Part shown: in pieces, positions 3,471-36,843 of the stretch
How positions within the stretch are numbered: position 1 is the stretch's first letter
Layout: each line of letters opens with the position of its first letter
DNA from: Candidatus Fimenecus excrementavium
GTDB taxonomy: Bacteria; Bacillota; Clostridia; Oscillospirales; Acutalibacteraceae
Length of the DNA: 64,000 nucleotides
Direction: 5' to 3'
Assembly: GCA_018712805.1 (NCBI GenBank)
Contig: DVGI01000020.1
Coordinates: 51,725-115,724 of the forward strand
The notes under the pieces: model-generated
Databases searched by the model: none
Seen by the model: the letters and a program-made list of their open reading frames with translations, nothing else
Told to the model about the DNA's origin: nothing
Program-made: the position numbers and the translations under genes

Positions 3471-5881
3471 ACCGGCGACACGGATTCGGCGATGTCGCCG
3501 TCGTAAGCCAACGGGAGTTTCACCGTCGCTTTGAACAGGTCGCCGTCAATTTGCAGTTCCAGCGCGCCGCCTTGCAGTGTGCAAAGGTCTTTTGCAATCG
3601 AAAGCCCGAGCCCGCTCCCCTCTTTAGTTCGCGACTGGTCCCCGCGCACAAAACGCTGGGTCAGTTCTTCGGGCGGAATGTTCAGCGCCTCGGCGGACAC
3701 GTTTTTCACCGAGAAAATGCCCTCGCCGTTTTCTTCGCGCACGTCCACGTAAACGCGCGTGCCCTCCAGCGAATATTTGCGGGCATTGTTTAACAGATTG
3801 TCAAAGATGCGCCACGTTTTTTGGCTGTCGGCAAAAATCACCGGCGGCGTTTCAGGCGTATTTAACACGATTTCGAGTCGGCGTTCAGCAAAACTGTCTT
3901 CCATTTCGCCGACGGCCTGCGTCGCAAGCTCGCAAAGGTTAACGCGGATTTTGTTAAGCGTAACCGCGCCGGAGGAAACCTTGGAGGCTTCGACTAAATC
4001 TTCAATCAGACGTTTGAGCCGGCCGGATTTCTCGTCGAGCACGCGGATATATTTCTGGGCGGTCTCGTCTTGGATGTCGCATTTTTCGAGCAAATCCACA
4101 TAGGAAATAATCGAAGTCAGCGGCGTTTTCAAATCGTGCGAGACGTTGGTAATCAGCTCGGTTTTCATACGCTCGCCTTTGAGCGCCTCTTCAATCGCCG
4201 CGGCTTTGGACTCCTGCGCGGCAGTGAAATTCTCGGCAAGCGAGCGCAGGGGCTGCGGCATGCTTTGCGTATCCAAAATCTGTGCGGGTTCACCATCATG
4301 CGCTTTTTGGGCGGCGGTTATGATTTTGTCGAGCGAAACGACGTAACGCCAAACCAAAATCAGGCTGATGACATTAAACAAAATCAATAAGAACAGCGCA
4401 ACGCCGATGCGTTCAAACGTAAACAGCGCAAGCACCGCGTTCACGGCAAGATAGAAGAGCGTAAACCAACGTACTTTTTTGGAAAGGGAGGTCAGCTTTG
4501 CAAGGTAGATGCGGCGAAGCGCGCCGAAAAACTTTTTGTTGCCCTTGTGCCACGCGATAAACAGTTTTGCGAGCAGGGTGGAGCGGAAATACGGCCGCCC
4601 CGCCTTATAGCCTTTTGCGACGGAGTTTATCCACTCCATGGCGATTGCATAAACCACAGCCGAAAGCAGAGCGCCGAGCGCGGGGAAGAAAAATTCATCA
4701 GTATAAGAAGAAATCTGATCCGCGCAGGCAACGACCGCCCCCGTGCCGGCAGCGATACCGAGGCCCCAGCTTAACACGAAGTGCAAATCGTTCGGCATTT
4801 TGTCGCCGGGCGCAAGGCAAATGCCCTCCCGTCCGCGCACATGGCCGGTCACAAGCACCAAATACAGCGAAATTACCGCGGCGGCAATCAGCAAGACGAC
4901 CGTTGCAAGACAGCGCGTGCGAATTTGCGACGCGCCGGTCAGGAATTCCTCCTGCGCATCGGCAAAGCTGTCACCGCGTTCGAGCGGCATGGGAATGTCG
5001 AAATAAACATCGTAACCTTTGTCGCTGAAGCGGCTGTTCAACAAATCAGCAAAGGGAATCGCGTAGTTTCCTTGATAAAATGTGTCAATGTTCAGCGAGT
5101 CGGAGTAAAGCGTCAAGCCTTTGTCACAGGTGTAGCCGAAATACCAGTCGGGGCTGTTTAAATATTCTCTAAAGTTTTCTGCCGTGACTTCTGCCGGCAT
5201 ATTGGTAATGACTTCGCCGGTGTCTGTATTATGCAAATAATATTGCACATTTTTCAGTTTGCTGAGCGCCTGCTGCGCCTGCAACACCGAGGACTCAAAC
5301 TCGCGGCGATAATTGGCAAGCGTGCCGGTATAGATTTCTTCGACCGCCTGCCGCGCGTGACTTTCCGAATCTTCGGAATACAGCGTAACTTCCGCCGTTG
5401 GCAGGCTGTTCAGCGGGATTGTCACGATAAATCCGCTGGGGGTCTCGTCTGCTGCATTTGCGCCGTTCAGGGCGTAAGCCGCCGTGGTTTCCTGTGCGTC
5501 GCCGTTACCATCTTCCACGGCTTCTGCGTTGTCGGCGTATTGCTGCCGAATGTCCGCTTTAAACCTTTCAAACTGTTCGACCACATAATCCTGCTCCTCT
5601 TCCAGCGTGTCATAAGCCGGCAGGGCGTCCCGCTCCCAGTTGTTGTCAATATAGGCTTTGCTCAAATCACTCAGGGTAGAGGCAACCTGCTGCTCAAACA
5701 TGGTTGAATCTGTAAAAGATAAATTGTCTCCACTGACGCCCTGCTGCCAGCCGTAGCTGTCGAGGGTCTGCACGACCAGCTGGGTATACCATGCCGCGGA
5801 AAAGACGCAGGCAAGCGCCACCAGGAATGCGACGGTTTTTAAGCCGTAGCTGTATTTAATACTTTTCAATTTTGTATCCAA
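3440..5881 (-). CDS. Sensor histidine kinase with a large N-terminal extracytoplasmic region
   Basis: 813 aa. HisKA H-box ELITNVSHDLKTPLTSIISY; HATPase NLLNNARKYS...GSGLGLSIAKDL; TM segments near residues 17-37 and about 330-530. TTG start overlaps the regulator gene 3' end. Confidence 0.9.
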   Translation of the reverse strand: MDTKLKSIKYSYGLKTVAFLVALACVFSAAWYTQLVVQTLDSYGWQQGVSGDNLSFTDSTMFEQQVASTLSDLSKAYIDNNWERDALPAYDTLEEEQDYVVEQFERFKADIRQQYADNAEAVEDGNGDAQETTAAYALNGANAADETPSGFIVTIPLNSLPTAEVTLYSEDSESHARQAVEEIYTGTLANYRREFESSVLQAQQALSKLKNVQYYLHNTDTGEVITNMPAEVTAENFREYLNSPDWYFGYTCDKGLTLYSDSLNIDTFYQGNYAIPFADLLNSRFSDKGYDVYFDIPMPLERGDSFADAQEEFLTGASQIRTRCLATVVLLIAAAVISLYLVLVTGHVRGREGICLAPGDKMPNDLHFVLSWGLGIAAGTGAVVACADQISSYTDEFFFPALGALLSAVVYAIAMEWINSVAKGYKAGRPYFRSTLLAKLFIAWHKGNKKFFGALRRIYLAKLTSLSKKVRWFTLFYLAVNAVLALFTFERIGVALFLLILFNVISLILVWRYVVSLDKIITAAQKAHDGEPAQILDTQSMPQPLRSLAENFTAAQESKAAAIEEALKGERMKTELITNVSHDLKTPLTSIISYVDLLEKCDIQDETAQKYIRVLDEKSGRLKRLIEDLVEASKVSSGAVTLNKIRVNLCELATQAVGEMEDSFAERRLEIVLNTPETPPVIFADSQKTWRIFDNLLNNARKYSLEGTRVYVDVREENGEGIFSVKNVSAEALNIPPEELTQRFVRGDQSRTKEGSGLGLSIAKDLCTLQGGALELQIDGDLFKATVKLPLAYDGDIAESVSPVSPDTPNSSS

Positions 5882-35618: not shown

Positions 35619-35789
35619 TTAGCCCCCGCCGAAAAGCGGGGGCTTACTTTTTTTATGCCCGAAACGTAAAAGCACTTGTTCCCGCTTCGGCGAAAAGCCA
35701 AGGTAAATGACTGGTTTTGCCTGTTGCCGAATATGGCGCAGATACTGCTGTCCCCAAACGCCGACGCGGGTAATAAATTCATCTTTCAA
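35619..35789 (-). pseudogene. Possible truncated TnpV-like (transposon-associated) gene remnant, 56 codons
   Basis: GGAGG SD lies 7 nt before the TTG. (M)KDEFITRVGVWGQQYLRHIRQQAKPVIY... recalls the IGxWGQxxLRYLK motif of TnpV proteins (from memory). The reading frame ends inside the hairpin at 35621-35644. Confidence 0.3.
35621..35654 (+). terminator. Strong orphan hairpin plus T-run on the plus strand (no plus-strand gene upstream)
   Basis: AGCCCCCGC-6 nt-GCGGGGGCT, then TAC and T7. A second small hairpin GCCGC-T6-GCGGC lies at about 35592-35607. Confidence 0.45.
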
Positions 35790-35870
35790 AGCAAAATCCT
35801 CCTTTGCAAGTACATTGTACCGCAACGGAGGAAATAACAAAAATGTGCGATTTGAATTTACAGAAACATA

Positions 35871-35899
35871 TTGACTAATCACGGTTTTTGAACTATAAT
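35871..35899 (+). promoter_or_regulatory. Canonical sigma-A promoter at the start of the low-GC cassette
   Basis: TTGACT, 17 nt, TATAAT on the plus strand. The first SD-preceded ORF begins about 320 nt downstream. Confidence 0.55.
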
Positions 35900-36096
35900 A
35901 CATTTGTCAAGTGATAATGTGTCCTTTAGTATTGAAGATTCGTAGAATGAGAGTACGAATTAGATTCGGAAGGGTTTGGGCATTTGACAAACAAATGAGT
36001 AAATCATCGAAACTATTGATTCCTTACAAATTCTCATTATGGAATCAAGAAAGCAGTTGTGTTGGTTGACTGTAGTTGTCCCCCTGTTGTTTCGTT

Positions 36097-36207
36097 GCTT
36101 TACACCACATTACGAACCGATAGTATTTCATCGGTCTTGTTTTGTTGCGTGTAAAGCAGTATATCTGTAATCGTCGTCCACGCACAATGCAAGTGCGTGG
36201 ATTTTTT
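36097..36207 (+). promoter_or_regulatory. Structured leader: nested hairpin followed by a terminator-like hairpin immediately upstream of the SD
   Basis: Outer 9-bp stem GCTTTACAC (36097-36105) / GTGTAAAGC (36149-36157) encloses ACCGAT-8 nt-ATCGGT plus CTTGTTTTGTT. Then comes TCCACGCAC-7 nt-GTGCGTGGA plus T6 (36177-36207). Confidence 0.45.
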
Positions 36208-36228
36208 CGGTTCAGAAAGGAGAAAAAG

Positions 36229-36456
36229 ATGAGCGGTAAAAAAGTATCGGGGAAGACTCATACCAAAGAGCAACTGGACAGTTGGGCAAACCAGAACAAT
36301 CCAAACAATAAGGCGTATCGGTCAAATGCTAATAATCACGCTAACCAATTGAATCCAAATCGCAAAACACATCAGCAGATTCACAACTCTAACCGTAGGC
36401 ATAAAGATCAAATCTGGCCCGAATGGGCACCCGACTACCCGGAATATGATGATTAA
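36229..36456 (+). CDS. Small basic N/H/Q-rich protein, 75 aa, unknown function
   Basis: AAAGGAG SD; MSGKKVSGKTHTKEQLDSWANQNNPNNKAYRSNANNHANQLNPNRKTHQQIHNSNRRHKDQIWPEWAPDYPEYDD. Low GC: the row at 36301 is 37%. Confidence 0.6.
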   Translation: MSGKKVSGKTHTKEQLDSWANQNNPNNKAYRSNANNHANQLNPNRKTHQQIHNSNRRHKDQIWPEWAPDYPEYDD

Positions 36457-36470
36457 AAAGGAGAATCAAA

Positions 36471-36653
36471 ATGAGCAAACATTTCTTTGATTTTGAAGAT
36501 GGCGACTTTACCCATACGATATCGGATAATATGGCTATTGATTCCGATTGTGATCTTCTGATGAGACTGGGCGATAACATGGCGATGGATATGGATACTG
36601 GTGATATTCATATCATATCATCGTGGTCTAACGATGACGAAGACGACGATTAA
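36471..36653 (+). CDS. Small strongly acidic protein, 60 aa, unknown function
   Basis: AAAGGAGAA SD; MSKHFFDFEDGDFTHTISDNMAIDSDCDLLMRLGDNMAMDMDTGDIHIISSWSNDDEDDD, with the internal repeat DNMA[IM]D. Confidence 0.6.
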   Translation: MSKHFFDFEDGDFTHTISDNMAIDSDCDLLMRLGDNMAMDMDTGDIHIISSWSNDDEDDD

Positions 36654-36675
36654 ATAGAATCATACCTCAATGCAA

Positions 36676-36712
36676 AAATCCCTCTGCCGGTTTCCCGACA
36701 GAGGGATTTTTT
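36676..36712. terminator. Bidirectional rho-independent terminator
   Basis: AAATCCCTCTG-12 nt-CAGAGGGATTT, flanked by A5 and T6. Confidence 0.8.
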
Positions 36713-36843
36713 AGATATAAATTGCTACCTTTACATCTTTCCAACTTGATGTCTTGAAGTGGTGCACATCCGAAACTGTTTCCAGATACTTATGAGCATA
36801 CGCTTCGTCAATCGTCAAATCGGCAACTTTGAGAAAGGAACAA

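Follow-up and report, generated by a model that had tools for sequence, protein, structure and literature searches.

The question raised by this locus is why two very small genes should stand behind some 320 nucleotides (nt) of elaborately folded RNA. The locus is a low-G+C cassette in Candidatus Fimenecus excrementavium, a member of the Acutalibacteraceae, and it lies at 35871-36712 of a 64,000-nt stretch (contig DVGI01000020.1 of assembly GCA_018712805.1, positions 51,725 to 115,724, forward strand) that we call the window and whose numbering is used throughout. Our analysis favors, with a probability of roughly 55%, the view that the RNA is a cis-acting, riboswitch-like transcription attenuator, responding to some effector and carried on a mobile accessory cassette.

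All parts of the cassette lie on the + strand. It begins with a σ70-type promoter (TTGACT-17-TATAAT, 35871-35899), which scored 11 of 12 in a consensus scan. An earlier reading of this DNA from its letters (hereafter the original prediction) had put the promoter at this position and called it perfect; the position holds, and the promoter is near-consensus. The −10 hexamer is separated by 329 nt from the ATG at 36229, and between the promoter and this start codon, with its Shine-Dalgarno (SD) sequence AAAGGAG, there is no credible gene. Transcription probably starts near 35906, to judge from the promoter, giving a leader of ~323 nt (35906-36228), in keeping with the ~320 nt first proposed; DNA conservation, folding energy and covariation all mark this leader as structured RNA, of class I of the motif described here. 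The nested hairpin (36097-36157) that had been noticed in it is real, being a helix, P4, closed around an inner hairpin, both of which are supported across homologs. Also borne out, by a terminator scan and by covariation, was a terminator-like hairpin with T6 ahead of the SD: the intrinsic terminator occupies 36176-36207, with a stem at 36176-36202 (10 pairs, 6 of them G-C) followed by the T tract. Two open reading frames (ORFs) follow, each present in the ORF list and each with homologs: ORF1 (75 amino acids [aa], 36229-36456, SD AAAGGAG at 36216-36222) and, after a gap of 14 nt, ORF2 (60 aa, 36471-36653, SD GGAG at 36459-36462). These are the basic and acidic small proteins of the original prediction, in which the implied start of ORF1 was one base off. 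The G+C content is 35-43% over 35700-36750 and 53-57% in both flanks.

The leader is conserved together with the first gene in more than 100 loci. When the cassette was compared by BLAST with the first related loci, the untranslated region proved to be as well conserved as the genes, also in loci that lack ORF2. The structure was read from an alignment of 37 leaders, to which the pair counts that follow refer unless a larger set is named. Standard pairs are formed in 90.4% of 1994 cells, a share that drops to 33-41% once the 3′ partners are shifted by 1-3 columns; compensatory (two-sided) changes are seen in 33 of the 55 leader pairs; and not one of 500 shuffles reached any of five covariation measures. 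Because G-U pairs are frequent on the sense strand, the + strand is the strand that folds.

The fold starts with two hairpins whose loops kiss. H1 (35938-35960; pairs 35938-35944/35954-35960) is 93.4% paired, with compensatory changes at 5 of 7 pairs, and its loop carries AAUGAGAG. H2 (36016-36048; pairs 36016-36023/36041-36048) is 91.9% paired, with compensatory changes at 7 of 8. The kissing-loop pseudoknot that joins them (35946-36038) pairs the H1 loop (35946-35953) with the H2 loop (36031-36038); it is 92.9% paired, 3 of its 8 pairs show compensation, and in 11 sequences, to give one example, a C-G pair has become U-A. Next comes stem H3 (36052-36088), with an outer stem (36052-36056/36084-36088; 94.0% paired, 3 of 5 compensatory), a conserved C-rich strand and a weak inner stem (36068-36070/36078-36080; 77% paired). 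Helix P4 (36097-36157) pairs GCUUUACAC at 36097-36105 with GUGUAAAGC at 36149-36157; its sequence is nearly invariant across homologs (90.7% paired, 2 of 9 compensatory). Within P4 lies the inner hairpin A:B (36116-36121/36130-36135; 85.4% paired, 4 of 6 compensatory). The terminator stem (36177-36185/36193-36201) shares in this pattern, with 90.3% pairing and compensation at 7 of 9 pairs.

A covariance model of the leader core (R1, window 36008-36162) was then used to realign 64 distinct sequences, metagenomic ones included. In this alignment, which is fitted to the model, 93.2% of positions pair, compared with 29-47% when slid, and compensatory changes reach all 8 pairs of H2 and all 6 of A:B; the P4 figures on this set are not independent, because the P4 sequence was prescribed by the pattern that served to collect the metagenomic members. 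The leader of the window has a minimum free energy (MFE) of −93.9 kcal/mol, with z = −4.3 relative to dinucleotide shuffles, and the state in which P4 and the terminator are both formed is the MFE state of the nascent RNA.

The original prediction had called for an Rfam scan, and this was done: with permissive cmscan filters, the + strand of 35900-36230 gave no match at E ≤ 10 to any of the 4227 models of Rfam 15. The T-box was not among the Rfam matches of the leader, and no UGGN bulge is found in the leader alignment. The P4 strings were not found in the 200 of 408 supplementary files of a human-microbiome structured-RNA catalogue that were searchable (PMC8040213), and the riboswitch-candidate literature yielded nothing relevant to the leader. 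This RNA thus matches no Rfam family and was not found in the searchable literature, and it may sit unnamed in a large uncurated catalogue. We considered and rejected a leader peptide: the leader has no conserved reading frame, and neither the ATG at 35995 nor the frames at 35911-36069 and 36039-36170 are conserved as ORFs.

The promoter and the terminator belong to the unit. In 33 of 35 homologous loci, the H1 loop motif is preceded by a near-consensus −35/−10 pair with 8-12 of 12 matches, whose end lies 46-53 nt away, and many of the homologous promoters match at all 12 positions (TTGACA-17-TATAAT). On the 3′ side of P4, 125 of 133 distinct sequences have a hairpin that runs into a T-rich tail, its stem ending 10-20 nt before the SD; the exceptions are mostly spurious hits of the search pattern. 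An SD and an ORF follow every true leader instance among the 80 metagenomic loci checked. A covarying, structured RNA with a terminator so placed supports the proposal that the genes are controlled through their leader.

A further pairing spans the terminator itself. Segment C (UCGGUUC, 36207-36213) directly follows the T tract, the SD being 3 nt further on, and it pairs with segment A (GAACCGA, 36114-36120); the pairing is 96.5% complete, with compensatory changes at 5 of 7 pairs. A:C excludes A:B and brackets the terminator. Since both A:B and A:C covary, two mutually exclusive pairings are under selection, which points to control at two levels. Segment C is transcribed past the termination point and therefore has no influence on termination; it must act on the read-through RNA, through translation, processing or stability. 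In the MFE fold of the window's leader, segment C pairs instead with 36163-36172, just 3′ of P4, and again brackets the terminator. By inspection, the leaders of a second class (class II, described below) have an equivalent bracketing helix, with a different 5′ partner at that same position 3′ of P4. Its sequence varies by locus with complementarity kept, as in GGAUCA/UGAUCC, CUGACCA/UGGUCAG, UCAGACUUG/CAAGUCUGA and CGAACCU/AGGUUCG.

We propose that the strong σA promoter, which is probably constitutive, yields a leader RNA of ~320 nt whose 5′ part would serve as the sensor, with H1 and H2 joined by the loop-loop kiss and, together with H3, setting whether P4 forms. With P4 closed, the downstream terminator would form and most transcripts would stop at ~36207, ahead of the genes, leaving the cassette off by default. 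An effector that alters the sensor would open P4 and free its 3′ strand (UGCGUG) for pairing with CACGCA, the 5′ strand of the terminator, and read-through into ORF1 and ORF2 would follow. On the read-through RNA, C would pair with A, displacing A:B and bracketing the terminator as a second layer of control, probably on translation or mRNA stability. Since the genes behind the leader can be exchanged for one another, the effector would most likely be a small molecule from the host or else a host factor.

Several observations weigh against this scheme. The candidate antiterminator (36146-36151/36179-36184), formed by the 3′ strand of P4 and the 5′ strand of the terminator, is 87.8% paired and shows one-sided changes only, and in the window it is ~13 kcal/mol less stable than the state with P4 and the terminator. 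In a widespread integrative element marked by integrase, ParB, NikA and AAA_25 genes (loci L001-L006, ~3900-4000), the terminator stem has been lost and H1, H2, H3, P4, A:B and the A:C complementarity have been kept, which argues that termination is not the only output of the RNA. The near-invariant P4 could be a binding site for a protein or another RNA instead of a simple switch helix. Finally, a promoter of consensus strength followed by a default terminator would make free leader RNA plentiful, which also fits an RNA with a function of its own.

What lies downstream of the leader bears on what it may sense. Leader loci were collected by a pattern scan of metagenome contigs, by searches of viral contigs and by R1 scans of whole genomes, and they fall into two classes by R1 score: class I at 110-170 bits and class II at 45-80 bits, the latter with a larger domain in the H3 region. 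Class II leaders have no Rfam 15 match at E ≤ 1, and by inspection their kissing pair (ACGAGAA/UUCUCGU) is the same pairing as in class I. Class I leaders accompany the ORF1 subfamily, class II leaders mostly genes for HNH-like proteins. A cultured carrier, Hominenteromicrobium mulieris CLA-AA-H250, has a class I cassette that includes ORF2 (L040). On one contig the two occur 2.2 kb apart (L221:6132-8532), a class II cassette with HNH-like and ORF2 genes being followed by a class I cassette, of the ORF1 type by score, with an HTH_17 gene between them.

In the metagenomic sample of about 80 loci, the commonest form is an HNH-like gene (110-125 aa) followed by an ORF2-like gene, in 37 loci; an HNH-like gene alone, or with a cut or unclassified second ORF, accounts for 16, an ORF1-like gene followed by an ORF2-like gene for 9, and an ORF1-like gene alone for 7. 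HNH-like cassettes, whose first product is also given as 113 aa, are found at L113 (in the genus of the window), L129, L128/L135 and most of L145-L224. The usual order there is a TnpV gene, with or without one for a DUF6809 protein, then the cassette, then an HTH_17 gene of 240 aa, all but the cassette on the minus strand. On a phage-like contig, the order is HNH-like, ORF1-like, canonical HNH and small terminase subunit. As first genes are swapped and ORF2 is present or absent, no encoded protein is the constant partner of the leader; autoregulation is therefore disfavored and a signal from the host cell favored. Such an exchange of genes behind a single RNA is uncommon among riboswitch-like elements and suggests that the signal matters to the mobile element and not to host metabolism.

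By the pattern of their divergence, ORF1 and ORF2 are real, conserved genes. Differences between homologs at first, second and third codon positions number 638/376/1788 for ORF1 and 805/281/2124 for ORF2, thus falling mostly at the third. The BLASTP and profile searches that had been called for found homologs in abundance (329 for ORF1 and 617 for ORF2, mostly at 70-97% identity) in uncultured gut and rumen Clostridia labelled Oscillospiraceae, Ruminococcaceae, Eubacteriaceae, Butyrivibrio and others. They found no known family for either product: no match to Pfam, NCBIfam, PHROG or PADLOC reached threshold, and toxin, antitoxin and defense families were unmatched. ORF1 had two PHROG matches, both weak (E 0.021 and 0.19) and without known function; sequence profiles of the PDB gave none for ORF1 and chance-level matches for ORF2, and the ORF1 motif strings were not found in the searchable literature.

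Residues 1-59 of ORF1 form a strongly basic stretch in which N, Q and H abound, with two xNQxNPNxK motifs, and the last 16 residues (PEWAPDYPEYDD) are acidic and aromatic. In a profile search of 1.84 billion representative proteins, its family comprised 321 clusters at 50% identity, nearly all of 40-150 aa, built of 1-3 copies of a ~25-residue motif, (T/S)xxQLDxxANQxNPNNxAY. Apparent fusions of the motif to known domains were rejected, the long matches being tandem motif repeats or mis-called read-through of the leader, which also accounts for some database "proteins" with N-terminal extensions. AlphaFold2 models ORF1 as three helices with modest confidence (predicted local distance difference test [pLDDT] 67), which suggests that the protein is small and helical, its body basic and its tail acidic and aromatic. 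Three D-x-D/E-G-D-like repeats occur in the strongly acidic ORF2, which is modeled as six short β strands (pLDDT 78), as would suit a small acidic β-rich protein; Foldseek found no fold relative of this model in the PDB at E < 0.9. Because ORF2-like genes recur behind two unrelated first genes, a role as partner or modulator is indicated, and ORF2 probably binds or modulates the product of the first gene, be it ORF1-like or HNH-like.

Distant ORF1-like genes (L086-L093, L077-L083 and L265) carry a different conserved leader of ~170 nt, which we call class III. A block in it (CUCCAACCUUGA), ~120 nt upstream, is complementary to a conserved UCAAGG...GGAG around the SD, so that it looks like a translational, SD-sequestering switch. 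Among the class III loci L077-L080 and L086-L093, which both scans covered, there was no match to R1, and Rfam at the gathering threshold reported only tRNAs.

The original prediction regarded the cassette as foreign, and its distribution supports this. The leader, ORF1 and ORF2 are single-copy in the source genome, no other copies having been found. R1 scans found the cassette in 10 of 401 genomes and 9 of 185 genera of the family and in 3 of 399 genomes of the class, and such a rare and patchy spread supports foreign origin. In genomes of the same genus, the pyruvate phosphate dikinase locus holds unrelated genes and no cassette, and one of these genomes (G382) carries a class II copy on a different contig. 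Among the 80 metagenomic loci, TnpV is upstream and divergent in 27, and the 240-aa HTH_17 gene is downstream and convergent in 31; other copies adjoin genes for tyrosine integrases, a TnpX-like large serine recombinase, type I restriction-modification systems, AbiH and ToxN. No match to the cassette was found among plasmid records. The cassette is best explained, on this comparative evidence, as an accessory module of mobile elements of gut Clostridia.

The TnpV-like scar beside the cassette in the window fits this picture in part. A near-identical locus in an Oscillospiraceae metagenome-assembled genome (L014, CP091722.1) has an intact divergent TnpV gene (PF14198, E 8.5e-28) and a gene for a Fic protein directly upstream, and its homology with the window begins at 35749. 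At the same position the window has a truncated, divergent TnpV-like frame (35622-35792, − strand) that aligns with residues 1-28 of the L014 TnpV (15 of 28 identical, E 4e-10), the only residues that can be aligned; the fragment by itself has no Pfam match. An 11-nt inverted repeat at 35797-35832 (TCCTCCTTTGC/GCAACGGAGGA, 91% complementary) overlaps the minus-strand SD of this frame and could sequester it. At the end of the TnpV remnant, on the + strand, a G+C-rich terminator hairpin (35621-35644; 9 pairs, 8 of them G-C, with a T7 tail) has no preceding gene and is probably left over from the rearrangement that truncated TnpV. At the other border of the cassette, ORF2 is separated from the convergent pyruvate phosphate dikinase gene by a hairpin with A5 on one side and T6 on the other (36674-36711, read from the sequence and assigned to neither strand). 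This hairpin shows as an inverted self-match in sequence comparison and is probably a two-way terminator; it is absent from the terminator-scan list because its loop exceeds 8 nt. In another pair of loci (L010:3261-3349 and L012:3100-3292), a class I cassette has, 370 bp upstream, a tRNA-Ser(CGA) gene into which a TnpV/HTH_17/Fic element has integrated. We rejected the idea that the cassette is the integration target, as the element sits in the tRNA gene and the cassette is only at a hot spot.

The strongest of the competing explanations places the point of the module in its proteins. ORF1 and ORF2 would form a type II-like toxin-antidote or nuclease-inhibitor pair that stabilizes or protects the element, with ORF2 neutralizing the ORF1 or HNH-like product and the leader doing no more than keep expression low. 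The complementary charges of the two products and their adjacent, SD-coupled genes are what such a pair would show, and the mobile elements and defense islands among which the cassettes occur would be its expected setting. The pairing is kept even between distant family members, since an ORF1-like/ORF2-like pair stands in the complete genome of Dorea phage NatCom_31361 (PV036443.1, L265:3040-3232), between the tail chaperone and tape-measure genes. An ORF2-like gene lies directly behind an ORF1-like gene in 50 of 137 scorable cases and behind an HNH-like gene in the 37 metagenomic loci given above, but ORF1-like genes lack an ORF2-like neighbor in the other 87. Solitary ORF2-like genes (L115-L126), moreover, occupy ordinary chromosomal settings, for example behind TldD/PmbA, with a promoter region of their own and no R1-type leader. 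As each protein so often occurs without the other and no toxin, antitoxin or defense family was matched, the toxin/antidote reading raised by the original prediction is not established, and we consider it unlikely as the account of the locus. A partnership of ORF1 with ORF2 is nevertheless plausible from their arrangement, and HNH-like and ORF2-like genes make a candidate nuclease/inhibitor pair. The HNH-like proteins score 15-21 bits against HNH_5, HNH_4 and HNH, under the Pfam cut-offs of 21-27.5, and their HHIxP...GG...N motif aligns weakly (E 0.28) with the HNH core of Cas8f. That a toxin/antidote or nuclease/inhibitor pair should be the point of the module is, besides, compatible with an attenuator upstream of it.

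The abundance expected of the leader suggests another alternative, which we rate as quite unlikely: that it is mainly a functional RNA, ~300 nt long and abundant, that binds and neutralizes or scaffolds small nucleic-acid-related proteins in the manner of type III toxin-antitoxin systems, the terminator setting the ratio of RNA to protein. The order of promoter, structured RNA, terminator and small gene is that of such systems. Promoters at or near consensus in most loci should make the terminated RNA plentiful, the first genes encode HNH-like or basic proteins, the lineage without the terminator retains the rest of the fold, and leader class partly tracks the first gene. One RNA core nonetheless precedes unrelated first genes, and the leader lacks the tandem repeats of ToxI-type antitoxins, none being present in 35850-36720. 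No ToxN- or AbiEii-like endoribonuclease was recognized, PADLOC at E ≤ 1 giving only an insignificant match to DpdF (E 0.017) for the HNH-like protein of L129. Covariation of segment C, which lies beyond the terminator, further argues for selection on the full-length mRNA.

We consider it very unlikely that the attenuator is set by a macromolecule of the element itself (whether its own product by feedback or, as in pT181, pIP501 or prgQ/Anti-Q, an antisense RNA) and not by a host metabolite, for although P4 and the single-stranded blocks GUAAA, GAAACUAU and GAGAA are as invariant as a protein- or RNA-binding site would be, ORF1 is basic and elements of this mobile kind often use countertranscripts, no protein is common to all cassettes, cassettes without adjoining mobile-element genes (L007 and L010) keep the full fold, and an antisense promoter was rejected when a consensus scan found no minus-strand promoter-like site within the leader of the window.

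If the riboswitch-like attenuator is a true sensor, it adds an orphan class of regulatory RNA, one belonging to mobile elements of gut Clostridia, bacteria that are abundant and for the most part uncultured. It would also open a way into three protein families without known function or fold, namely the NPNN-motif family (~320 clusters at 50% identity), the acidic β-rich ORF2 family and the mini HNH-like family. A bolder version, which we offer tentatively and regard as rather doubtful, is that the RNA is a new riboswitch class with two structural variants, residing on phages and integrative elements and sensing a small molecule that reports host state or infection. Small effectors that target nucleic acids (HNH-like or NPNN-motif proteins) would be gated by it along with an acidic modulator, which would make it a ligand-gated switch for a defense, counter-defense or addiction module.

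Comparison with known systems places these features in relief. As a self-contained unit of low G+C content with its own promoter and terminator, set between unrelated genes, the cassette resembles phage morons and other accessory small-gene cassettes, and a related pair stands in Dorea phage NatCom_31361, as described above. Morons are not known to share a conserved structured leader of 300 nt. For the sister cassettes, an analogy is the colicin-type HNH DNase with its acidic immunity protein, which likewise combines a small HNH-like protein with a small, very acidic one after it. The HNH matches of the sister cassettes are, however, below Pfam thresholds, the first gene in the window is ORF1 and not HNH, and ORF2 is predicted to be all-β, whereas Im proteins are helical.

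Type III toxin-antitoxin systems (ToxIN, CptIN and TenpIN) share with the cassette a promoter, a noncoding RNA, a Rho-independent terminator and a small protein gene, along with a setting in mobile elements or defense islands. The cassette differs from them in that its RNA is one complex fold without tandem repeats, its proteins are not ToxN-like, and a second gene, ORF2, is often present. In antisense attenuation, as in pT181 repC, pIP501 repR and pCF10 prgQ/Anti-Q, leaders from mobile elements of Firmicutes also choose between terminator and read-through by alternative pairings, and loop-loop kissing is central; the kiss of the cassette is instead intramolecular, with covarying loops, and no antisense promoter was seen in the window. 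A further likeness is to terminator-type riboswitches and orphan candidates, such as the Breaker/Weinberg motifs in Rfam, in which a long 5′ leader behind a promoter contains a multi-helix sensor with a loop-loop contact; the lysine riboswitch also uses a kissing loop. As in those RNAs, there is a conserved helix whose 3′ strand overlaps a possible antiterminator, and the terminator comes just before the SD. The present leader differs from them in having no counterpart in Rfam 15, in preceding genes for tiny mobile-element proteins and not metabolic or transport genes, and in the extra covarying A:C helix across the terminator. A terminator-based regulatory leader is of a known kind; this particular RNA falls in no Rfam family, and the three families of small proteins that it accompanies are uncharacterized.

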